This document shows positions 101 through 38,522 of a DNA stretch of 42,792 bases, piece after piece. The stretch's first letter is position 1, and every line of letters begins with the position of its first letter. A program made the position numbers and the translations under genes. The notes beneath the pieces are model-generated. The model was not told the DNA's origin. It saw nothing but the letters and a program-made list of their open reading frames with translations, and made no database searches. Origin of the DNA: a virus (lineage: Duplodnaviria > Caudoviricetes); the IMG/VR virus record IMGVR_UViG_3300030372_001680, positions 1 through 42,792 of that record. One strand, given 5' to 3'.

Positions 101-701
101 GGGTAGCTTCTGTGGGTTTTAAAGTTAGGACACGCTTATTGCCGCCGCTGATGATAGTATAAACTTCTATGAGCCCTGTTTCTTGGATGAACAGGTGAAC
201 CATTGTTGACCCAATCTTGATGCGCTCGTTTGTAGTCCACCCTTTCCAGTTTATCCCGTATCTTTCAGCCAGCGATCTAGACGAGTACTTTCTGTATTTG
301 AACCCAACACGCTTGTTTAAAGAGAGCTTTAGGTATTTCCAATCGTCTGGTCTAGTTTCCTTGAAAAGCCTGAGCCTACTTTCCTCTTCTAGAAACGAAG
401 CTATTTTTATGGCTGTAGCTGTAAGCGGTTGTTCGATACTGACGCTATCGAGTATGACTCGGCACGTTATGTCGGTGACAACCTTTGAGGGGATGTTATG
501 AAGAAGGAGGACTAACCCTTTGTTGTAACCTGCTTTATCTTCGGTTAGCCATTTGTGTATCTTTTTGTCTAACGCAGGGATACAAGCTTTAGCTAACTTT
601 CGTCCATATTTAGTAGAGGCTTCGCACTGTTTTTCTTTAAGCTTTTGATTTACTGAGCGGTATCTTTTCCGCCCCATGTCGTTCATTTCCTGTTCCTTCA
701 T
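1..701 (-). CDS. T7-like single-subunit RNA polymerase, N-terminal part (continues across the join into 42692-41183)
   Basis: Manual translation from ATG 701 (MKEQEMNDMGRKRY...WTTNERIKIGSTMVHLFIQETGLIE...APLYLPS) is open to position 1 and in frame with the 41183 ORF. Joined length is 2211 nt = 736 aa. Alternative start is ATG 686. Confidence 0.9.
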   Translation of the reverse strand, partial: MKEQEMNDMGRKRYRSVNQKLKEKQCEASTKYGRKLAKACIPALDKKIHKWLTEDKAGYNKGLVLLLHNIPSKVVTDITCRVILDSVSIEQPLTATAIKIASFLEEESRLRLFKETRPDDWKYLKLSLNKRVGFKYRKYSSRSLAERYGINWKGWTTNERIKIGSTMVHLFIQETGLIEVYTIISGGNKRVLTLKPTEATQKWISNFNEVNETLAPLYLPSESPRGYSDAVIS

Positions 702-948
702 TCGGATCTAATCCCCAACCGTCCCATTCCTGTTCTGTTCCTTCCATCGGCTCAAAGGAGCCACGGCTATTTATTGTTCCAAAGTCTAGGATACCAGAGC
801 AACCTTTAATGCAATCTATATCCTTGATTCGAAGAATAGCTTTACGAGTTTTGTCAACTCGAAGTCTAACCGCAGTAGCAGCTTTAGGCGGTTTTGGAAG
901 GAAAAGCTCAGGCACGGTTTCTAGAGCGGTTAACTGATTTACGCACAA
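637..948 (-). CDS. Hypothetical protein (start uncertain, possibly GTG near 915)
   Basis: ORF fills the gap between HNH and RNAP on the coding strand and overlaps both; no motif recognised. Confidence 0.4.
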   Translation of the reverse strand: MCVNQLTALETVPELFLPKPPKAATAVRLRVDKTRKAILRIKDIDCIKGCSGILDFGTINSRGSFEPMEGTEQEWDGWGLDPNEGTGNERHGAEKIPLSKSKA

Positions 949-1135
949 TAGCTAGATTAGAATGAGAATTATTACTAGGGTTATGGTCTTTATGGTGTAC
1001 GTCTTTACCGTCACCTTTTTTAACACGACCCATAGCCATCAACCTACGGCGAGCTTTGTTACGCATTGCCCTACGTTTCTTTTGCTCAGGTTTCCCTTGG
1101 TAGTTATCGTACTCTAGTCTGTAATTCCTAGCCAT
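908..1135 (-). CDS. Small HNH endonuclease-family protein
   Basis: GDGKDVHHKDHNPSNNSHSNL...VNRSRN HNH signature, basic N-terminus, AGGA RBS upstream. Confidence 0.85.
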   Translation of the reverse strand: MARNYRLEYDNYQGKPEQKKRRAMRNKARRRLMAMGRVKKGDGKDVHHKDHNPSNNSHSNLAIVRKSVNRSRNRA

Positions 1136-1216
1136 TTGATATTCCTTCTAATCTAAATATTATTTTTAGTCAAGGTTCGCATGCTCAGCGGCGTTGATGA
1201 TAGTAGTTGATAACCT

Positions 1217-1545
1217 GAGCGACGAGCGACGAGCGACCGACCGACGTAGCGAGCGCAGCGAGCGGAGGAGGGAGGGAGCGAGGAGCGAGGAGCGGGTTTG
1301 TTCCTTGGCCTGTCCGGCCTTGAGGACTTCCGATGCAACTGGAAGTTGCCTCCCGCCGAGCGAGCTTGCGAGCGAACGGGTGAGCCGAAAAGCAATCTGA
1401 GCGCAGCGAAGGTAGCTTTGACCGACTGGCAGCTCCGGTTGGGCGAGGCGAGACCGAAGGTCTGGGGAGCTGCCAGGCGGTCTGAGCAAAGCCCAGATGA
1501 GCGCAGCGAATCCGGGCTCTTGCGAGAGCGACCGTAGGGAGCGAA
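1217..1545. repeat. GC-rich, strand-biased GAGCG repeat tract; candidate origin or single-strand initiation element
   Basis: More than a dozen GAGCG copies on the + strand; GAGCGCAGCGA at 1251, 1399 and 1499; overlapping ORFs are low-complexity. Confidence 0.6.
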
Positions 1546-1572
1546 TGGTTTGAATGGTTGATTTGAAGGCAC

Positions 1573-1613
1573 AAAAAAAAACCCCGAGATTCCCTTACGG
1601 GAACCCCGAGGTT
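1573..1613 (-). terminator. Intrinsic (rho-independent) terminator ending the early operon
   Basis: Minus strand AACCTCGGGGTTCCC-GTAA-GGGAATCTCGGGGTT then a T run: 15-bp stem with G-U pairs and a GNRA loop, just after the stop of 1622-1843. Confidence 0.9.
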
Positions 1614-1621
1614 GTGTTGGT

Positions 1622-1843
1622 TTATCTTAGATTGATAAACTTATCTTCATCTGGATTTTCTTCTGTAGGATTATCTAAGTGATAGTATTTTCTATATCTG
1701 TCTAGGTGTTCTTGAGTCTTAGTATCTTCCATGAAGTACTTAATGGTACAAGTTACTAGAAACGATATAATCACTGTACATACAATCCACAATGCGAATG
1801 CCAGTATGGTTCCTATTGTTGGATGTATGTTAGATAACTTCAT
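1622..1843 (-). CDS. Small early membrane protein
   Basis: One hydrophobic segment (IGTILAFALWIVCTVIISFLVTCTI); overlaps the GATase stop; followed by the terminator. Confidence 0.7.
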   Translation of the reverse strand: MKLSNIHPTIGTILAFALWIVCTVIISFLVTCTIKYFMEDTKTQEHLDRYRKYYHLDNPTEENPDEDKFINLR

Positions 1844-2828
1844 GGTTTTCTATGCCACACCCCATACCGTAGTAATCGGTAGGCTTGGCTTTAGTGTACG
1901 AGTTAGTTCCTGTTTTGACGTAAGTACTGCCTTTTGTTGTGCTGTAGTTCTTTTTCTTTTTACCGCTTGGTTTGTAACTAATCTTCGGTTGATTTTCTTC
2001 AAAGGCCATGCTTGCTTGTGTGTACCCCAAGCTACCTCTGTTGAATGAAGGCATATCAGTGAACTTCTCCACTTTGACTTGCCCTTCTTCGTTTATCCTG
2101 CAAGCCCAGTTATCCTTTAGTTCGAACGCTGGAGTTGCTACCAGTTCTAGTGATTTTGCTAATTGAGATATGTAGTCTTTGCGTGTTGCAAATACCAAAC
2201 ATCCATTGTTTAAAGAAGGTATAGCTCCTGCGTACAGTGAAGCTCTTTCTCCTTTTGCTACAATGAACTCATTATCTGGTGTGATAGTAAGTGTAGCTGC
2301 ATAACCAGTTAGGTAGTCACTCCATGTGTGGTGTCCTGCTTCGTAGACGTAGGAGTTTAATAACCACTCTGAGTCGCAAGTTGAGTATCGTTTGTGCAGA
2401 TACTTTAGGTCGTCTTCGTTACCTTCGAAGTCAACTACACCGTTATGTACCATAGCGTACCCTTTCTTACGGAATGGGTGTGTGTTAGCTATAGTTTTAC
2501 CGTTGGTTGCAATACGTCCGTGTGCAATGAACGCACCAGTAGGAGCATCTGCGTGTCCACTGGACAGCATATCCATTTCTATTGCGTTACCTAGTTTGCC
2601 TAGGTGTTGTTTGGTGTAACCAACTGATCCAATACCTTTGAAGTCTGTAGGATTTACATACTTTTCACAGTAGTATGAGTGTTTTTTGGTTTGCCTTTGC
2701 TTTGTTGCGTAGGCGAATCCAAATCCATCCCGTTGACTAGACACTAACTTTTGAGAAGTTAATGCTAAAGTGTTGAGTTGTTTTCGGGTTAAACCCTTTA
2801 CGTTAGATAGTCCAATAATTTGACACAT
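1830..2828 (-). CDS. Class II (Ntn-fold) glutamine amidotransferase
   Basis: N-terminal nucleophile Cys2 (MCQIIG) and the motifs RDGFG, HGRIAT, NTHPF, HNG, CDSE. Confidence 0.9.
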   Translation of the reverse strand: MCQIIGLSNVKGLTRKQLNTLALTSQKLVSSQRDGFGFAYATKQRQTKKHSYYCEKYVNPTDFKGIGSVGYTKQHLGKLGNAIEMDMLSSGHADAPTGAFIAHGRIATNGKTIANTHPFRKKGYAMVHNGVVDFEGNEDDLKYLHKRYSTCDSEWLLNSYVYEAGHHTWSDYLTGYAATLTITPDNEFIVAKGERASLYAGAIPSLNNGCLVFATRKDYISQLAKSLELVATPAFELKDNWACRINEEGQVKVEKFTDMPSFNRGSLGYTQASMAFEENQPKISYKPSGKKKKNYSTTKGSTYVKTGTNSYTKAKPTDYYGMGCGIENHEVI

Positions 2829-2855
2829 GATAGTATTCTTTCTTTCTGTTAGTTG

Positions 2856-4061
2856 TTATTCGTTTTCTGCCATAGTTTCTGTCGGAGTATCTGTACTTAG
2901 CTCCAACTTGTTTAGTTCGTAGTGACGTTGCACTACCCATTGTTTTAGCTCTGGTTCAGCTTTGGATGACATGAAGTCACTCATGCTTCCCAGAGGTGTG
3001 TAATGATCCTTGATGAACAGTAGGAGTTCTGCCCACTTGATTATCTTGTGTGGGTTGAGTGATCCCGAGTGCAGTCGGCATTCTATTGCCTTGCGGCTAC
3101 TTACATGAGAAGTGAATGCGTAGTACTTCTCTGTTGATGAGTAACCTAGCGCACAGTACCTGTTGTTACGTCTGCTTGCTGGTACGATTTCTTTTAACCA
3201 CGGTAATGCACAAGCGAACCTTTTACCTCTGGTATGCATAGCCTCTGTACTGAGGTCACGCATATCTAAGTGAACGTGAAGCCCACATTCTTTGGAGAGT
3301 TCACATTTATTTTTTCTTAGGTGGTCTGTTAACTTGAATAACCTGCCCCACCTACCTTGTTGTAACATGATGCGAACCTCTTGTCCTCGGTGGAACTGAT
3401 GTTCTGCTTTAGGTGATACGGATACGTCATACCCCCAGCTAACACCATAGAGTTCTTTGGTTGTGTCTGGGAATTGGAAGTCGATGTCGCCTCGTTCGTA
3501 CACAATGCGTCCATCGTCATCTTCTCTTGATTTAGCTCTAGCAATGTACTCTAGTTCTATACCTATAGCAGTTCCGTGAGGTAGAACACTTTCCATTACT
3601 CTGTTTGGACTCATTGTGTTCCAAGACTCTTTGAATTGAGCTACTTTATCAGAATATGATAGTACGTTTTCATTATACTCCCGTCTGTACCATGTACGTT
3701 CGTCTTTGATTGTTCTCGCAATCTTACGGGCGAACTTGGCTATACGAGGTGTGACTCCATTTGATTCTAGTAGAGCTTTATCTCCATCGGTTAGGCAATC
3801 TCTCCAATTATAGTCGTAACCAGATCTGAGCTGACCCCCTGTTCTGTAAGGAGATGATAAGGAATCAATACCGTGGTTATCTTGTATTCGTTGGATTAAC
3901 CCGTAGTTTTTTAGGGCTGTGATGACCATGCCTTTGTTGGATAGGACTCTCGTACCATCGTTAAGGACATCGTATTCTAGAGGGATTCTTGAGTTGAACT
4001 CTCCTCTTTCGATTTGTTTGTGCAGAGCTAGGTTTATCTGTTGTTTTTTCTTTATGTTCAT
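2856..4061 (-). CDS. Putative amidoligase (COOH-NH2 ligase, glutamine synthetase/glutamate-cysteine ligase fold)
   Basis: Motifs GIELE, DVSV, CGLHVH, NRYC, IECRLHSGSL; adjacent to a class II GATase, as is typical of this family. Confidence 0.85.
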   Translation of the reverse strand: MNIKKKQQINLALHKQIERGEFNSRIPLEYDVLNDGTRVLSNKGMVITALKNYGLIQRIQDNHGIDSLSSPYRTGGQLRSGYDYNWRDCLTDGDKALLESNGVTPRIAKFARKIARTIKDERTWYRREYNENVLSYSDKVAQFKESWNTMSPNRVMESVLPHGTAIGIELEYIARAKSREDDDGRIVYERGDIDFQFPDTTKELYGVSWGYDVSVSPKAEHQFHRGQEVRIMLQQGRWGRLFKLTDHLRKNKCELSKECGLHVHLDMRDLSTEAMHTRGKRFACALPWLKEIVPASRRNNRYCALGYSSTEKYYAFTSHVSSRKAIECRLHSGSLNPHKIIKWAELLLFIKDHYTPLGSMSDFMSSKAEPELKQWVVQRHYELNKLELSTDTPTETMAENE

Positions 4062-4065
4062 AGTG

Positions 4066-4299
4066 CTAGTTATTTTTGATGATAGTTTCTACTGTTGGCT
4101 TGCCCTTTAGTGCATCATCGGCCACTTCAAGGGTAAGAGTTACTGCGGTGACGTAGGCTAGGAACCTACTCCGAGATATTTCTTTGATCTCTCCTTCATC
4201 AAGTCCTTTGAGTAGCTTTACAGATGTTTTGTGTGCCATCTGTACGGCTTCTCTTGCTTGGATTAGTTGAGCGTCTGTTAGGTTATCTATTATAGACAT
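4066..4299 (-). CDS. Hypothetical early protein
   Basis: 77-aa ORF tightly packed in the early operon. Confidence 0.7.
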   Translation of the reverse strand: MSIIDNLTDAQLIQAREAVQMAHKTSVKLLKGLDEGEIKEISRSRFLAYVTAVTLTLEVADDALKGKPTVETIIKNN

Positions 4300-4385
4300 A
4301 GGTATAATCTGTAGATGAATGCTGTTATTACGGTGATAGTACCTGCAAGGCAGATAACTCCAGTGATTAGTTCAGTTAGTTTCAT
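4290..4385 (-). CDS. 31-aa hydrophobic peptide (not in ORF track)
   Basis: MKLTELITGVICLAGTITVITAFIYRLYLCL*; its ATG overlaps the upstream stop (TAATG) and it fills the gap exactly. Confidence 0.6.
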   Translation of the reverse strand: MKLTELITGVICLAGTITVITAFIYRLYLCL

Positions 4386-4750
4386 TATGCGTCCTCCTTT
4401 GGAAAGAGTTCGTTCCATCGTTCAGGTGTGATTCCGGTCATTAGGAACTCACGTTCTTCTGCGGATAACTCAGCGAATGCGTGTTGAATGAGATCACCTG
4501 ATTGCCAGAGTAGATACTTATGTAGGAACTTAAGCATACCCATGTTTATGGTCATCTCGCCTTGTCCAGCTACGGTTGATCGTTGGACAACCACAGATCC
4601 GGTAGCCTTTTGTCCGTTCTCGTGAACAAGAAACTCACCATCTTTGGTTGCGAAGTGTGGTATTGGAGCTATGTGGCTCTTTCTTGAGTTGTGGAAATGT
4701 AAGTAGTTTGGGTGTCTTACATCTATTAGTGTTTGTTGTGTAGTTTTCAT
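4385..4750 (-). CDS. Hypothetical early phage protein
   Basis: Likely start ATG 4750 (AATACT-ATG). The C-terminal LIQHAFAELSAEEREFLMTGITPERW resembles a motif common in uncharacterised phage proteins. Confidence 0.75.
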   Translation of the reverse strand: MKTTQQTLIDVRHPNYLHFHNSRKSHIAPIPHFATKDGEFLVHENGQKATGSVVVQRSTVAGQGEMTINMGMLKFLHKYLLWQSGDLIQHAFAELSAEEREFLMTGITPERWNELFPKEDA

Positions 4751-4791
4751 AGTATTATATATGATAGTATTTATTGTCATTTGGTTTAAAG

Positions 4792-4831
4792 CCAAGGTAA
4801 GCCCGACATTGTGGTATCGGACTTACCTTGG
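4792..4831 (-). promoter_or_regulatory. 17-bp RNA stem-loop between early genes (RNase III-type processing site or weak terminator)
   Basis: CCAAGGTAAGTCCGATA-CCACAA-TGTCGGGCTTACCTTGG pairs fully on the minus strand using 2 G-U pairs; only a short U tail follows. Confidence 0.6.
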
Positions 4832-4843
4832 GTGAGGAGATGG

Positions 4844-5179
4844 TTAGGAACGTGTGTCGAACCAAGATTTAATATCAAGAGATTTGATGCCGCCATGTGC
4901 ATCACGAGACGCACGAGCTGTGATCCACATCACCTTGGTAGGTACATCACCGGAAGTTGGGAAACCAGACGGAGCTGATTCGTCCCAATCAATAGGAGGC
5001 AGAATAGTACCAATGAAGTCGTAGCTTTTACCGTCAGCAGCACGAGTAAGTTTACCTTCACCCATCTTGTCAGCGACAATCTTTTGTAATTGAGTCGTGA
5101 GTGTTACCTGTTGCTTGAGTTTCAGTTCGAGTTCAGCAATACGTTGTTTGTCTGTTGTTTCCTTAGTTTTATTAGGCAT
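4844..5179 (-). CDS. Hypothetical protein, first early gene
   Basis: Likely start ATG 5179 (AATACTATC-ATG, MPNKTKET); N-terminal coiled coil. Confidence 0.7.
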   Translation of the reverse strand: MPNKTKETTDKQRIAELELKLKQQVTLTTQLQKIVADKMGEGKLTRAADGKSYDFIGTILPPIDWDESAPSGFPTSGDVPTKVMWITARASRDAHGGIKSLDIKSWFDTRS

Positions 5180-5238
5180 GATAGTATTTTGATGTCCATC
5201 ATTTGATGCCAGAGACCCGATCCCTGATCTTATCAAAT

Positions 5239-5269
5239 AATATACGTCCCTATTGAATAGGTGAGTCAA
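5239..5269 (-). promoter_or_regulatory. Candidate host sigma70-type early promoter with a palindrome in the spacer
   Basis: TTGACT-19 nt-TATATT upstream of the first early gene; the spacer holds CCTATTCAATAGG. Spacing is non-optimal. Confidence 0.35.
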
Positions 5270-5980
5270 GGGCTGGCGACTCAGCCTGTGGCTTGCGGCA
5301 GAGGTTTCTCAGTCTCACTGAGACCTCAGACATATAAGCCAAGCAAGCTGCGGTTATCCTCGGTGCTTACTCCGTGGATCACCCAGTTACTTGGCTTATA
5401 TGACGGTGACGCAAACACTGAGCGTGTCGCCAGTGCATTTTACCCTTTACCACCTATTCACCATAGAACCCGCGTACTGGCGCCAGTTGTTTCTGATGCT
5501 GGAAATTCAAGATCAAGGGAAAAGCCTTGGCTTTTAGGCATAGGAAACTCGCGGAGCAACCACGGCAAAGCTGTGGTTGTCGCGGAGTTTGCTTGCCGAC
5601 CGGATCTTTAGGCATTGCTTGTGCTACCGTGTGTTTCCCCAAGAAAATAAGATAAAAAATAAACCGTGCTTTCTCTGTTTATTTTTTAAAACCAACGCGA
5701 CTAAAAGACGTTGGCTACAAAGAAGATGATAGTATGTTAACTTTTAGTCTCGTTGGTTGGTCTTTTTTCTTTGGAAACAGTAGGTAAGCAGAAGCTATGC
5801 CTGAATTTCCTGCATCAGGTCGTGTTATTTTTAGACAAATCCAAAGAGAGTTTGAGATTAGCCGACATATGGTCTCGAGGCGGGCTAGGCGATGTCGAGT
5901 AATCTCTCAACTCTCTTGGATTTGGCGTGAAGAAAATAACACGGCCCAAGTCGCTGGTTGGAGCTTGCGGCAGCACACTG

Positions 5981-6163
5981 TAATCCAATGAGCAGAATCA
6001 TTGGTGGTAATCCAACGAGCCAAAGCGTTGGTGGTTGATCAATCTAGCCAAAGAGATTGTCGTAATCCAATGAGCGAAAGCATTGGTCGTGATCAATCGG
6101 CGAAACGATTGTGGTAATCCAACGAGCCAAAGCGTTGGTCGTGGTACAGCGGCGAAACGCTGT
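5981..6163 (+). repeat. Tandem array of 7 hairpin units (~27-nt period)
   Basis: Stems start at 5985, 6012, 6040, 6067, 6094, 6119, 6146; loop core GCNRAA; linker T(G/C)GT(A/G)AT. Confidence 0.9.
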
Positions 6164-6380
6164 CTGCCCTTTTGATGGCAAGGTGAATGGCGCGTGTAAA
6201 TTAAAATGATAGTAGTTTAAGTTGCTGGTTTTCTGGCGCTAGTGGTGTACTGTTGCAATGGGAGTCATACGGTCGTACTCGCCGCGAGGAGCGGATACTG
6301 GATTTACCTAGTGGATTTCTTTGGATGTTCTCGAAGAGGTTATCCGAATAAATACACGGTGACATCGTAAGGGCAGTCGG

Positions 6381-6483
6381 AATCCAACGATCGAAAGCGT
6401 TGGTCTTGCGGAAGCATCGTGATCCAACGGCAAGACGTTGGGCCTCGCTGGCAAGCGTAGTGGTCAAGCGGCGATACGCTTGA
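6381..6483 (+). repeat. Second cluster of 3 related hairpin units
   Basis: CCAACG-ATCGAAAG-CGTTGG (6384), CCAACG-GCAAGA-CGTTGG (6424), TCAAGCG-GCGATA-CGCTTGA (6464). Confidence 0.8.
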
Positions 6484-6910
6484 GTTGATATTAATTTGCG
6501 AGATGAGTGAACCGAAGGGAACGAAGGAGCAACTGGTTACGCTGGCATCCTTTGAGTTATCCGAAGGATAACCTTGGGCCAAAGCCCAAGATGCAATCAA
6601 CAGGTAAGGACGCAACGACGTCGGTAACCACAGAAACTGCTAGTAACTGAAGATACCCCCCTCCCCCCTTGAAGTTTTCTGCGGGTAGTCCGTCCTGTTG
6701 ATTGTATTCAAAGGATGACAGCGGGGGTTGTTCCTGCTACCGGATAACGATATACCCCCTCGAATTATTTCGTGAAAAACCACAGTTTCTCCATAGAGAA
6801 ATTTCTGAAAACTCGAAAATACCCGATCACTTTTGATCGGCTACAGATTTTGCCGATCATTTTAATAGAGAAATAATCATCAATAAAAAAGAAGAATACC
6901 TCTTGACAAC

Positions 6911-8617
6911 CTAAAGGTTCATCCATAGGTTCTCCACAGGTTTCCTACCGAATACATGCTCTTGAAACCTTTCAAGTTCTCTAGTTATTCTAGTATCCTC
7001 TAGTTCCTTCTGTGCTTCTTCTCTAGTTCTACTGAGGTGTTCTACCCAATAACCACAGGCCATACTTAAAGCATCTAAACGGTCATCATGTCGTAAACTT
7101 CCTTTATCTCTAGTGAGTCTACTAAGTTGATAACATAAGGAGTAACTTAAGCCTGTTTTATTTATAGTATCTTTATTACAAGACCTATAATCCTCTAAGA
7201 TAACCTTAGGGTCTATAATGAGGTGATGATTATTAAGAAGAGGTTCTAGTGTGTCTATTATCCTAAGTTCTTTCTGCTTACTGTGTCTTATTTCTTCTAA
7301 GGTAACTGGATAATTAAGTTTTTTAAGGGTTTGTCTTAATAATTGAGAAAACATCCCATCTCCGAAGTTAGACTCAACAATGATCCTGTTTATATTCTGA
7401 TCTTTGGCTATTTGAGCTAATTTAGTCAGTGTTGTCTCATCGTAGCCTCCCTTAAGACCTCCAGCCTTAGTGACAAACAACTGAGAGGCCAGTATTTTCA
7501 CTACAGCATACCCTGTTTCGTCTTGTCCTCTTCCTGAGGGGTCAATAGCCATGACTGACCCTGTGTATTTCTCATGGCCTTCTGAGACCTCCATAGGGCG
7601 ATAGAAATAATCACCACTAAAACCAACGCTAGGTAGATCTTTGAGAACCAGTTCAGGACTAGAAGCCCACACTAGCTTTGGAGAAGCTACGTCATTACTG
7701 AGGGGATGGACTACAAGATCAGTAAGTTTCAACGGGTATCTCTCAAGGTCACTCAGGCGGCTATCCAGCATGAACTGTAGGGCAAACCCCATCTTACCAT
7801 AGGACATCTCTCGTTCCTGAAGGTCTATATCGTCGAATCTGTCTGGATCTGTAGGCCGTAAAGCTAGTGATTTATCACTGTCTAGCTTTTCGTGGATATA
7901 AGGAGCCAATCTGTCTCCGTAAACACTATTTACGTCTTTATCGGGGTACTTCGCTGGCCATATTCGTGTTGTATATCCTCTTTGAAGGAGTTCGTTGTAG
8001 AGTGTTTCTTCTGATTGGGGAGTACCAAGAAAAATAATCCTACCGTCAGGCTTCAGAACAGCCTCAAACTCCTTAACGGTTTCCCCCAGACGATCCCTCA
8101 TTAGCTGAGTCATGCTGTTATTGGCCGACTCAACGTCATCAGCAATGATGATGTCTGCACGAGAACCCGTAAGCTGCCCTGTGATCCCCACAGATTTAAC
8201 GCTGGGAGCGTGAGCAGCAGGAGCTGGGCCTACATCAAAGCTAATCTTAGATGATCTCTGGTCTTCATGGGGCTTCAGATGCTGCAATATGGGCATTTCT
8301 GAGATTAACCTCAGGGTAAACGTACTAAAGTCGTCAGAACGGGTCTTAGAAGCAGAAACAACCAGAAAGTTAAGCTTAGGATTCAGGAGAAGCTGGTGAA
8401 CCACAAAGGCACTGGTAATCCAGCTTTTGCCTACCCCACGGAATGCTTGAATAACTAAACGCCTTGGGCCATGCTGAACGAACTGAGCGATGTCGTTCTG
8501 AATAGGCGTAGGGTTTGGCAGGTTCAGGTGCTTCCAAACAAGAAAAAGGAAGTTTCTGAAGTCTTTCAATCTGGGGTCTATACCAGATGTGCGTTTCTTG
8601 GAGCGTGAAGGGGTCAT
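6911..8617 (-). CDS. terL: Terminase large subunit (T7 gp19-like)
   Basis: Walker A AFRGVGKS, GSRADIIIADDVE, nuclease motifs IDPSGRGQDETG and HDDRLDAL. Confidence 0.97.
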   Translation of the reverse strand: MTPSRSKKRTSGIDPRLKDFRNFLFLVWKHLNLPNPTPIQNDIAQFVQHGPRRLVIQAFRGVGKSWITSAFVVHQLLLNPKLNFLVVSASKTRSDDFSTFTLRLISEMPILQHLKPHEDQRSSKISFDVGPAPAAHAPSVKSVGITGQLTGSRADIIIADDVESANNSMTQLMRDRLGETVKEFEAVLKPDGRIIFLGTPQSEETLYNELLQRGYTTRIWPAKYPDKDVNSVYGDRLAPYIHEKLDSDKSLALRPTDPDRFDDIDLQEREMSYGKMGFALQFMLDSRLSDLERYPLKLTDLVVHPLSNDVASPKLVWASSPELVLKDLPSVGFSGDYFYRPMEVSEGHEKYTGSVMAIDPSGRGQDETGYAVVKILASQLFVTKAGGLKGGYDETTLTKLAQIAKDQNINRIIVESNFGDGMFSQLLRQTLKKLNYPVTLEEIRHSKQKELRIIDTLEPLLNNHHLIIDPKVILEDYRSCNKDTINKTGLSYSLCYQLSRLTRDKGSLRHDDRLDALSMACGYWVEHLSRTREEAQKELEDTRITRELERFQEHVFGRKPVENLWMNL

Positions 8618-35667: not shown

Positions 35668-36416
35668 AGCTTTACCTCCTTGGTTTGAAAGTCATAGTCA
35701 TCGCTTCTAAGTATGTATGCCATACGAGCTTGAGTAAGGATGGCTTTAGACGATGTGACCCCTGACTTGTTAAAGGTTTCTTTGACTGCATCCCAAGTGT
35801 GACCAAAGGACTGCCTGTTGACTAGCTTGCCTAGAATTTTTTCAGCAGTCTTAGGCCCAATTTTAGGACACCCGCCATAGTTATCTGTACTGTCTCCGGT
35901 AAGAGTTTGGATCATATGATTATAGAAAGCAGCACCTTCGTTTATAGTAATGATACCTTCGTCAGCTTTGTCAGGATTAAACAATCTACAAGGAACAGTT
36001 TTAAAATCCTTATCAACACTAACTACGATCCTGTCGTAAGCATCTTTAACTGTCGCTTCAATGCCGATGTAATCGTCAGCTTCTAACCTGTCCTCACACA
36101 AAGCACCCCATTCTTTTTTCATATGATCCCTCAAGGCAGGGAGAATCATAGGCTTACGGACAGATTTCCTGTTAGCTTTATACTCAGGGTAAAGTTCTTT
36201 CCTGAAATTCTTAGGAGAAGAAAGATACACAGATACTTTCGAGGCGATAAGCTCGTCTTGAAGCATCTCAATAAAATTATCTACCTGAATTTTTCCTTCT
36301 TTAGCATCAGCGTGTAGAGTCCACTGGTCGTCTCCCCAATGAACAGGTTCTTCGCAAGACGCTGCAACTTTGTAAGCAATGATGTCTCCATCAATTAATA
36401 GGTGTCGTTTAGTCAT
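35646..36416 (-). CDS. 5'-3' exonuclease (gp6-like)
   Basis: LLIDGD, YKANR, LEADD, DKD, GDSTDNYGGCPKIG. Confidence 0.93.
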   Translation of the reverse strand: MTKRHLLIDGDIIAYKVAASCEEPVHWGDDQWTLHADAKEGKIQVDNFIEMLQDELIASKVSVYLSSPKNFRKELYPEYKANRKSVRKPMILPALRDHMKKEWGALCEDRLEADDYIGIEATVKDAYDRIVVSVDKDFKTVPCRLFNPDKADEGIITINEGAAFYNHMIQTLTGDSTDNYGGCPKIGPKTAEKILGKLVNRQSFGHTWDAVKETFNKSGVTSSKAILTQARMAYILRSDDYDFQTKEVKLWNPPQK

Positions 36417-36718
36417 AGTATTTTTTGTTTACCTACGAACAATTCGTAGCGTGTTTTCAGTACAGGGTTGTTAAAGGTATAGTCGTCCCATTTTTTAAGG
36501 GCATAAACTATAGTGTCGTAATTTTTATTAAACACTTTGGCTATTAGATTTACACTGTACCCTTTGTTGTGGAGGTACTGATACAACATAGCTCTAGCGT
36601 CTACTGCATCCTGCAATCTTGTAGGAGACTTCAGTAATCTCGTGCTGATACCGAAGATGTACGCAGCATCCGCAATCATCTTGTGTAAGTGAGGTATCTT
36701 TATATCTTTTTTATCCAT
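36413..36718 (-). CDS. Stand-alone DnaA C-terminal (domain IV)-like helix-turn-helix protein
   Basis: LKSPTR...VDARAMLYQYL...SVNLIAKVFNKNYDTIVYALKK parallels DnaA domain IV; likely start MDKKDIK. Confidence 0.7.
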   Translation of the reverse strand: MDKKDIKIPHLHKMIADAAYIFGISTRLLKSPTRLQDAVDARAMLYQYLHNKGYSVNLIAKVFNKNYDTIVYALKKWDDYTFNNPVLKTRYELFVGKQKIL

Positions 36719-36719
36719 G

Positions 36720-38522
36720 TTAGTGTGTGTCAGCCCAGTTAGTTCCTGCTTTAGCTTCTCCATCAAGAGGACACTTGAACTTAAAGTAATCTCCTGCCTC
36801 TCGAATAGATTCCACAGCTAGAGCCATGACTTTATCTTTATTCTCAGGCCAAACTTCTAGTTGAAACTCATCGTGAACGTGAGCAACAAAGGAGAAGTCC
36901 TTGCCCTGAATCAGACCTTCTGTCTGAAGTTTTTCCCACAGATTAACTGTGGCTTTCTTCATTACCAATGCCCCAGCAGATTGAAGCAGAGTGTTAAGTG
37001 CGGCGTGGTTACTCCGTATCTGAAGTTTCCTACCGTCCAGACCCATAAGGTAATCCCGACCCTCTAAAGCTTTGAAAATTTTTTCCTTCAAAACTCTCAG
37101 GCTAGGTAGAGATTCAAGAAACCTTTTCTTAATGGATGCCCCCTCCTTTGAGGAACCTCCTATGATCTCTCCAATCTTGGCGTCACCAGCACCATAAAGA
37201 AACCCATAGATAAATGTCTTTGCATTGTCCCTAGTAGGAAGTCCCGCTGCCTTCTGATTAACAGTATGAATATCATCCTCAAGCAGCTTGTGAGTGTATT
37301 CAGGATCGTTCATGTAATGGGCCAAGCATCGAAGCTCAAGGCCACTGGCGTCACACCCAATGAGTACCTTTCCCTCGGAGGCTGTGAACAGGGATCGGTA
37401 CTCAGGCTCACGGGGTACTTGAGCCATGTTGGGGTATCTGTGGGTGCAACGTCCAGTGACCGCTCCATTAGTCACAACGTGACCATGAAGTCTCCCCTGT
37501 CTCTCCAGCTTCATCCAGCCGTTAGCACCGTCAGCTAACTGGCCCATGCGCTTCTGAAGAGTCAGGTAACGAGCGAGCTTCTTTGCTTCTGGGTAGGGTA
37601 GCCCAACCAAAACTGTTTCATCTACCTTAGGCTTACCTCCCTCTGTAAACTGATTAGGTTCCCATCCTTGGGCCATAAGCCTTTCAGATATGTGATCCCT
37701 ACTGGCAGCGTTAAAAGGAATGCGCTTAACCTTATGATCTCCCTTAACTATTTCCTTAGGCTTATACCCAGCAGCTATAGCAGCAGACTTAGTAGAGAAC
37801 TGCTGACCACCAGCAATCCACCAAGTCATCTTCATTTGGATAACCTTGGGAGGAAAGAGACTCTGGAACTCACTCTCCAGTTCTATCTTTTCGGTAGCCA
37901 GTTTAGCGTACAACTGCTCGGCAGACTTAACATCAAATGCAAACCCGTTGAGTTCTTGCTCAGTCATTATCCAAGCAAAGTCATGCTCCAGTTTAATAGC
38001 TTCTTCGGAGTACTTCTTAGACTCAAGATGATTGAGCAACTCCAGAGTAACCTTCACATCCTGCTCACAGTAATCCTCCAGTTCTTTAGTCCACTTAGTC
38101 AGGTCACTTGACTCCAAGTAAGTACCCTTGAGCATATTCAAACGATAGCCCCAAGCTTTAAGGCTGTGACTCCCAGTTATATTGGTAGGGTAGTCATCCT
38201 CCTTGCGGGATCTGTTGATGTCGTAATCCCTAATGTCCGTGTGAATCAGGCGACTCATGGTAAGAGTGTCCCGAACCAGCGCAGAGGGAACCCAGTTATA
38301 GAGTTTTCTCAAAGCTGGAAGATCAAAATTAATAATATTATGACCCACTATAACATCAGCTTCGTCCATCATCTTGAGACCGTCCTCAATAGGTGGGCCT
38401 TGCATTGTGCTGTTGAACCTAAACACCTCTCTGGTATCAGCGTCCTGCAACACTAGGCAATGACACCTGTGCAACTTGGGAAGCAAGTCGTTGGTTTCTA
38501 TGTCAAAGACAAGCCTCTTCAT
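36720..38522 (-). CDS. Family A DNA polymerase (gp5-like)
   Basis: Exonuclease motifs FDIET and GHNIINFD; polymerase motifs DASGLELR, AKTFIYGFLYG (Tyr at the T7 Y526-equivalent site) and VHDE. Confidence 0.97.
   Translation of the reverse strand: MKRLVFDIETNDLLPKLHRCHCLVLQDADTREVFRFNSTMQGPPIEDGLKMMDEADVIVGHNIINFDLPALRKLYNWVPSALVRDTLTMSRLIHTDIRDYDINRSRKEDDYPTNITGSHSLKAWGYRLNMLKGTYLESSDLTKWTKELEDYCEQDVKVTLELLNHLESKKYSEEAIKLEHDFAWIMTEQELNGFAFDVKSAEQLYAKLATEKIELESEFQSLFPPKVIQMKMTWWIAGGQQFSTKSAAIAAGYKPKEIVKGDHKVKRIPFNAASRDHISERLMAQGWEPNQFTEGGKPKVDETVLVGLPYPEAKKLARYLTLQKRMGQLADGANGWMKLERQGRLHGHVVTNGAVTGRCTHRYPNMAQVPREPEYRSLFTASEGKVLIGCDASGLELRCLAHYMNDPEYTHKLLEDDIHTVNQKAAGLPTRDNAKTFIYGFLYGAGDAKIGEIIGGSSKEGASIKKRFLESLPSLRVLKEKIFKALEGRDYLMGLDGRKLQIRSNHAALNTLLQSAGALVMKKATVNLWEKLQTEGLIQGKDFSFVAHVHDEFQLEVWPENKDKVMALAVESIREAGDYFKFKCPLDGEAKAGTNWADTH

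Follow-up and report, generated by a model that had tools for sequence, protein, structure and literature searches.

A lineage-restricted array of ten hairpins in the inferred left arm of a marine T7-like phage genome

We identified ten short hairpins in the non-coding DNA of a T7-like podovirus (IMG/VR virus record IMGVR_UViG_3300030372_001680, 42,792 nt, hereafter referred to as the window), which are real and represent a lineage-restricted, probably selected hairpin version of the left-end repeats of T7-type phages. Stem sequences change from unit to unit while both arms remain complementary, and this compensatory pairing points to the single-stranded fold as the selected property in this lineage. 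To our knowledge, the repeats beside T7-type terminal repeats have no settled function; hairpin units, in contrast to plain direct repeats, allow a direct mutational test of the fold. The regeneration of the left repeat itself is described as not fully understood (PMC3350473).

Ten hairpins with fully paired stems

A first-pass annotation of the sequence had reported one array of ten hairpins with always-paired stems at positions 5981–6483. All ten are present there, with the stems and loop cores it gave, and they are arranged in two clusters of seven and three units, 220 nt apart, rather than in a single array. Cluster 1 (5985–6163, + strand) comprises U1 (5985–6004), U2 (6012–6031), U3 (6040–6059), U4 (6067–6086), U5 (6094–6111), U6 (6119–6138), and U7 (6146–6163), separated by linkers of 7–8 nt. 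Cluster 2 (6384–6483, + strand) comprises U8 (6384–6403), U9 (6424–6441), and U10 (6464–6483). The reported period of 25–28 nt applies to U1 to U7, but the later spacings are 238, 40, and 41 nt. Likewise, the linker T(G/C)GT(A/G)AT is exact in four of the six linkers of cluster 1, whereas the linkers of cluster 2 measure 20 and 23 nt. Loop conservation holds only in the form G/T-C-N-N-N-A, as loops varied about as often as stems, and five of the loops described by six-nucleotide cores are in fact 8 nt long (A-core-G).

Stems measure 6–7 bp and loops 6–8 nt. Units of the 8-nt-loop type and the 6-nt-loop type largely alternate, which results in a two-hairpin higher-order repeat of 52–55 nt, and neighbouring stems differ at eight of the nine junctions. 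In an alignment of the ten units, all 60 cells are Watson–Crick pairs and none is G-U; both-side changes were found at five of the six pair positions, adding up to 11. Sliding the partners by 1–3 columns as a control reduced pairing to 18–57%. Between 5981 and 6483, ten 6-bp stems with 6–8-nt loops compare to 0.28 ± 0.53 (maximum 3) in 500 dinucleotide shuffles, a null model that takes no account of copies having arisen by duplication. Genome-wide, only two 503-nt windows scored above 4 (7 and 9).

All ten loops share one orientation. The form G/T-C-N-N-N-A is read on the + strand, on which the loops are purine-rich and G...A-closed. U4 contains the stable DNA mini-hairpin GCGAAAGC (at 6074) and is the only unit with the full GCGNNAGC/GCGNAGC mini-hairpin motif (1/10). 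In folding models, U2 and U6 each tend to pair with sequence around the other instead of forming their own stems (mean pair probability 0.02–0.17 on the + strand). The − strand folds the units too, and folding energies do not tell the strands apart.

In double-stranded form, tandem palindromes of this kind could also serve as operators for a dimeric protein, of the phage or of its host, with a CAA-N12-TTG-like site. The regular period of ~27 bp would suit such a function, CAAN-N10-NTTG fits seven of the ten units as read from the sequence, and the phage encodes a protein of the DnaA helix-turn-helix type (36413–36766). However, the arms change jointly to unrelated sequences (ACAGCG, CAAGCG, CAATCT), which recognition of a duplex does not require, and the half-site spacing varies by 2–4 bp; we consider duplex operators quite improbable.

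Genome context and placement by the inferred terminal repeat

The window is a complete circular assembly of 42,692 bp plus an overlap of ~99 nt. All recognised genes lie on the − strand, including those for RNA polymerase, SSB, endonuclease I, primase-helicase, DNA polymerase, portal, capsid, tail, and terminase. The sequencing runs containing the phage are marine, and the nearest terminases of cultured phages are at most ~60% identical to its own. A search for the host did not find one, the sole GTDB match being a terminase at 57%. The hairpins sit in a 1.7-kb non-coding gap between the stop codon (6911) of the terminase large subunit gene (6911–8617, − strand), the last gene ahead of the non-coding terminal region, and the ATG (5179) of the first early gene (4844–5179, − strand). 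Open reading frames within 5261–6926 had no family match.

The first early gene encodes 111 amino acids with a predicted coiled coil and three strands, for which no family was found. A single-sequence structure model (pLDDT 60) matched an identical record and coiled coils but no other fold significantly, and early-protein queries against IMG/VR yielded no relatives. The idea of a DUF736-like single-stranded DNA (ssDNA) binder was dropped, as neither Pfam nor PHROG supported it; a weak structural match to DUF736 (TM 0.47/0.58) occurred in the protein of clade locus L001 only, whose homology to the window protein is not established. Several further features of the genome were recorded. An early amidoligase and glutamine amidotransferase pair (1830–4061) is conserved in the clade, the first early gene by contrast being highly variable. 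A second GC-rich non-coding region (1170–1590), which precedes the genes for the HNH protein and RNA polymerase, contains a terminator, many CGCTCG-type repeats, one ACTATCAT octamer, and a TTGACT promoter, and is a possible origin region. The helix-turn-helix protein at 36413–36766 is small, matches the DnaA C-terminal domain with an E-value of 1e-5 (under the Pfam cut-off), and adjoins the DNA polymerase gene.

The placement of the array relative to the genome end follows from a short junction motif. In T7, ATCTGTT forms the first bases past the 160-bp terminal repeat; T3 and fPS-7 carry ATCTGT directly past theirs, and the marine phage P-SSP7 carries ACCTGTT. For SP6, a presumed terminal-repeat boundary was used in the comparison, and in phiKMV the junction motif was not seen at the boundary. 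ATCTGTT is the class II pause signal at the T7 concatemer junction (PMC11617373), and the 206-bp terminal repeat of P-SSP7 was mapped experimentally (PMC3350473). The window has ACCTGTT in the same context (6599–6605, − strand), 155 nt past a GAGGGGGTAT...CCCCC element at 6761. This GAGRGGGTAT...CCCCC element, which starts at 6761, is conserved in the clade. Among 17 clade regions, i.e., the window and 16 loci of ~67–78% terminase identity (near-duplicates and too-short loci excluded), the motif lies 154–181 nt past the GAGRGGG element in 12, as compared to ~0.009 expected in each, with motif and distance window picked after viewing the T7 context. In the other five regions, it lies at 212, 225, 287, or 301 nt, or is absent. 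From the context of ACCTGTT and its distance from the GAGRGGG element, we infer that the terminal repeat ends at 6606. By homology, it would be a direct repeat of ~165–185 bp (6606–6780, − strand) that includes the GAGRGGG element, its outer boundary being uncertain. The array would thus lie 123–621 nt inside the left arm, which agrees with the link to genome-end biology that the annotation had drawn. In one DNA assembly (X3), the contig 6135–6826 is comparatively deep (7.7 versus 4.3 and 4.8), which fits a terminal repeat but is too shallow to use.

The surroundings of the inferred terminal repeat vary among strains. The stretch separating the terminase stop from the inferred terminal repeat contains a triple inverted repeat (TGATCGG/CCGATCA; 6823–6862), which may correspond to the palindrome at the right end of T7; strain X6 lacks 72 nt here. 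Modules at 6491–6736 and 5529–5592 are swapped or deleted in close strains, and L045 diverges at 6714 as well, so part of the inferred terminal repeat is exchanged among strains.

Variation in close strains and relatives

An independent contig of 99.9% identity (L054) carries the array unchanged. Copy number does vary in close strains, an outcome that the annotation had named as a check: four strains from four studies (X6, X8, X9, and X10) have lost a 265-nt segment (6129–6393) between two identical 12-mers, one in U6 and the other in U8. The loss joins 6128 to 6394, fuses U6 with U8, and removes U7, leaving eight units instead of ten. X6 is the only strain with all substitutions in 5592–6128 listed, and none of its 19 substitutions falls within 5917–6128 (P ~0.002 under a uniform model, calculated for the 148 nt that belong to the array). 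Within 6394–6491, X10 has no difference and X9 has one. As X6 has another 235-nt stretch devoid of substitutions, recombination could account for the conservation of the array.

A covariance model of the unit, run on 85 sources, returned six of its own training units and one match at E 0.69. It detected no array in the 84 other loci, so the array is not essential clade-wide. A pattern search across the clade loci revealed no array either. The exact unit pattern had no match in IMG/VR, and a looser pattern (~119 stretches) gave, among the 80 matches listed, a single match each and no array. A blastn search of 5200–6950 against 50,697 phage records found nothing, and cluster 1 had only two short chance matches in plasmids. 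Allowing for very near records that these collections may lack, the array is lineage-specific. In literature searches covering papers outside subscription journals, no description of the array or the clade was listed.

Relatives at ~75% terminase identity lack the array, yet their left arms are rich in hairpins: perfect 6-bp hairpins per 1.1 kb of arm number 12 in the window, 3–11 in twelve clade loci, and 8 in P-SSP7. Arm modules are swapped freely between strains, and the left arms of the clade are mosaics of other hairpins. One of these is a hairpin with a AGAAAGCA loop (5653–5688, − strand), which shows a compensatory change (5655/5686) in close strains and recurs in the left arms of L007, L009, L029, L030, L047, and L050, with variable stems of 6–17 bp and at most three copies per genome. 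Its loop reads AGAAAGCC in L029, and Rfam returned no match to these hairpins. Another is a structured module between the two clusters (6290–6362, + strand), which the window has in common with L002 (3435–3520) and L030 (1770–1856), of ~77% and 70% TerL identity, respectively. Its internal loop, AAC/AAC (read as GUU/GUU from the + strand), is invariant, whereas its apical arm varies.

Selection or neutral expansion

Selection on the single-stranded fold and not on duplex sequence, as first suggested in the annotation, is likely; the 60 of 60 paired cells, the covariation, and the low divergence in X6 support it. Template switching can perfect palindromes without selection, and a neutral history was therefore weighed, in which a short palindrome within a hypervariable arm was multiplied by slippage, its two halves being kept perfect by template switching. 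Such a history would be in line with the confinement of the array to one lineage, the copy-number shift via 12 nt of identity, and the free swapping of arm modules between strains, and T7-like genomes are most variable near their terminal repeats (PMC5923468). On the other hand, 6-bp arms are barely enriched in non-coding DNA of E. coli (observed/expected 1.04–1.07; PMC5941160), and template switching inverts spacers as well (PMC8604942), yet all ten loops point in one direction. Since, in addition, the array diverged less than its flank in X6, we consider selection likelier than template switching, and neutral expansion improbable.

Promoters, transcripts, and the question of DNA or RNA

A host-type early promoter, TTGACT-18-GTATAT, is predicted at 5240–5269 (− strand), and the RNA contig that covers the early genes stops at 5232, which is no more than a weak hint. 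For the opposite direction, the weak candidate TTGATG-18/19 (6172–6202, + strand), a consensus match only, is a possible analogue of T7 A0; it lies inside the deleted 265-nt segment. Upstream of cluster 1, the search for a TTGAC-type promoter on the + strand was negative. As a separate observation, an antisense sigma-70-type promoter, TTGAC(A/T)-17-TA(G/A)(G/A)TT (6903–6931, + strand), overlaps the terminase stop, points into the late operon, and is present in 13 of 13 clade regions.

If a leftward antisense RNA like the T7 A0 non-coding RNA were made, the hairpins could titrate a host protein that binds RNA or acts in defence, in the manner of a multivalent decoy or sponge. Several observations are compatible with this possibility, which we nevertheless rate as rather unlikely. 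RNA-library contigs from two studies (X5 and X19 being one sample, from which this DNA may itself derive, and X20 the second study) cover 6242–6752, including U8 to U10, and the weak promoter at 6172 points in the required direction. A cGAAAg tetraloop is possible in U4 and U8, and the uniform orientation of the loops would suit a transcript. The module at 6290–6362 folds better on the + strand via G-U pairs in three genomes (−12.9 versus −4.7, −25.9 versus −18.0, and −29.9 versus −22.8 kcal/mol). Finally, of the eight mismatches in 23 long clade hairpins, four are A-C and correspond to G-T (G-U in RNA) on the antisense strand.

However, the RNA contigs are unstranded and may be DNA. Transcriptional read-through across the concatemer junction is expected in T7-like phages, so the same coverage is explicable without a dedicated RNA. 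Cluster 1 is covered by no RNA contig among those listed, but this carries no information, as the DNA assembly X3 breaks there as well. The candidate promoter has seven of the ten units upstream of it, and in all four deletion strains the array persists although promoter and module are both missing. Moreover, z-scores of the module are alike on both strands in L002 and L030. An Rfam search of 4000–8000 down to E 5 returned only a chance miRNA match (30 of 85 bits), and a search of ten relatives at the gathering cut-off returned none. The array's position and the lack of G-U pairs, a count that rests on about six independent changes, favour DNA over RNA. Further points for DNA are the 229 Watson–Crick pairs of the 23 long clade hairpins, among whose mismatches no gene-sense G-T occurs, the presence of related loops in both orientations within the left arm, the G...A-closed loops with one exact GCGAAAGC, and the negative search for a + strand promoter upstream of cluster 1. 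T7-type primase sites in the array number five on the + strand and none on the − strand (1.6 expected, not significant); their copies are not independent, and four of the five overlap a stem foot.

Processing of a gene-sense transcript into 27-nt RNAs, or mimicry of ToxI, CRISPR repeats, or boxB, had been proposed as well. The regular period, the single-stranded linkers, and the folding of the units on the − strand would allow for it. By contrast, the host-type early promoter comes only ~710 nt after the array, loops of 6 and 8 nt are mixed, and neither a family match nor a consistent pseudoknot was found; the 27-nt RNAs gained no support, and this group of explanations appears very unlikely. 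The cruciform array, also suggested before, is doubtful, as 6-bp stems with 6–8-nt loops would, to our understanding, hardly extrude.

A one-strand octamer brackets cluster 1

The polar octamer ACTATCAT occurs on the − strand at 6206–6213 and 5726–5733, so that two copies bracket cluster 1. All ten copies in the window lie on the gene-sense strand, and nine fall within its left 7 kb. Across 18 clade loci, some of which are near-duplicates, the 39.6 kb past the terminase contain 57 copies, the 64.4 kb before it none, and the antisense strand none. In the window, the pattern covers 158–6213 (− strand), and in clade loci (L001–L063) it lies downstream of TerL; copies recur every 300–1500 nt along the left arm and the early genes and often overlap start codons. 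The octamer pattern may apply more widely than the array.

The usual form, TACTATCA, has six bases in common with TACT/RTGMC, the consensus at which phage tf DNA is nicked on one strand, and with the TACTATGAC sites of LUZ24-like phages (PMC3517423). By its sequence, the octamer resembles a nick-type site, with a Chi-like word as the alternative.

Possible function of the array

We tentatively propose that the array provides ssDNA hairpin handles on the + strand of the left end, which would serve as repeated protein loading sites during end processing. Going by T7 biology, the + strand would end 3' at the left end. Incomplete synthesis of the lagging strand, together with resection by a 5' exonuclease, would leave it single-stranded prior to concatemer formation, whereupon the hairpins could fold on the exposed non-coding strand and offer repeated loading sites to a phage replication or packaging protein. 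The primase-helicase would be one candidate reader. Our search for a reader protein found none: no fold could be assigned to the first early protein, and nothing points to a virion RNA polymerase.

A different and unlikely route to exposure involves the octamer: nicks in the gene-sense strand at ACTATCAT would free the + strand, and the array would act, as an ssDNA platform or as a leftward RNA at entry, by loading a phage protein or by soaking up a host DNA-sensing protein, with the left arm built from swappable hairpin modules. If the array turned out to be a decoy, made of either RNA or ssDNA, it would constitute a new anti-defence element in the first DNA entering the cell.

Comparison with known systems

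Pseudo-ToxI, CRISPR-repeat mimics, and CsrB-type sponges are repeat RNAs that serve as phage decoys or sponges. The array resembles them in consisting of many short tandem hairpins in non-coding phage DNA, but differs by the absence of pseudoknots, of GGA in the loops, of G-U pairs, and of a promoter–terminator frame around it. The pseudo-ToxI reading of the annotation found no backing, as Rfam returned no match to E 5 and loops and linkers form no consistent pairing. The same applies to a CRISPR-repeat mimic: Rfam returned no match to such a family, GAAA lies inside the loop and not in a 3' handle, and the units differ. BoxB has a GNRNA pentaloop as its consensus, with boxA nearby. In the array, for which no boxB family in Rfam matched, hexa- and octaloops occur, three of them (GCCAAA) with C at a purine position, so that these and other loops do not fit, and boxA is missing.

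Mobile-element hairpins differ as well. attC sites have RYYYAAC...GTTRRRY cores at least 57 nt apart, L boxes, cassettes, and an integrase. RYYYAAC is found in four of the ten units, but these measure ~20 nt, no cassettes are present, and none of the 45 ORFs matches an integrase. REP/BIME elements carry a 5' GTAG-type tetranucleotide at the hairpin foot and are associated with a RAYT transposase, whereas our units have no fixed tetranucleotide there and no HUH transposase was matched.

DNA mini-hairpin sites, such as G4 hairpin I, RSF1010 ssiA, and the promoters of the N4 virion RNA polymerase, share short Watson–Crick stems and G...A-closed loops with the array (PMC13037366). GCGAAAGC is the stable mini-hairpin at the phage G4 priming site (hairpin I; same source), and as there, it lies out of register within a longer stem in U4. 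In contrast to these sites, nine units lack the full motif, there are ten copies instead of one to three, and the phage is double-stranded. N4-type promoters have a 5–7-bp stem, a 3-nt GNA loop, and a virion RNA polymerase, whereas the loops here measure 6–8 nt and four internal virion proteins matched no RNA polymerase HMM or motif.

The closest counterparts are the left short repeats of T7, T3, fPS-7, and SP6, the T7 region being termed 'SRL'. They occupy the same place, i.e., past the terminal repeat and junction signal and before the early host promoters. They are likewise short tandem units whose copy number varies among close strains (here 10 versus 8); fPS phages have 11–34 copies of the left-end repeat (PMC5923468). 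T7-type units are direct repeats of 7–13 nt without hairpins, whereas the window unit is a 27-nt hairpin with compensatory stems in largely alternating pairs. It has no likeness to the units of T7, T3, or fPS-7 and is not a short non-palindromic direct repeat, and T7-type arms contain 1–3 perfect 6-bp hairpins in their first 1.1 kb as compared to 12 in the window. By position and variability, the array behaves like the left short-repeat region of T7, with a different type of unit.
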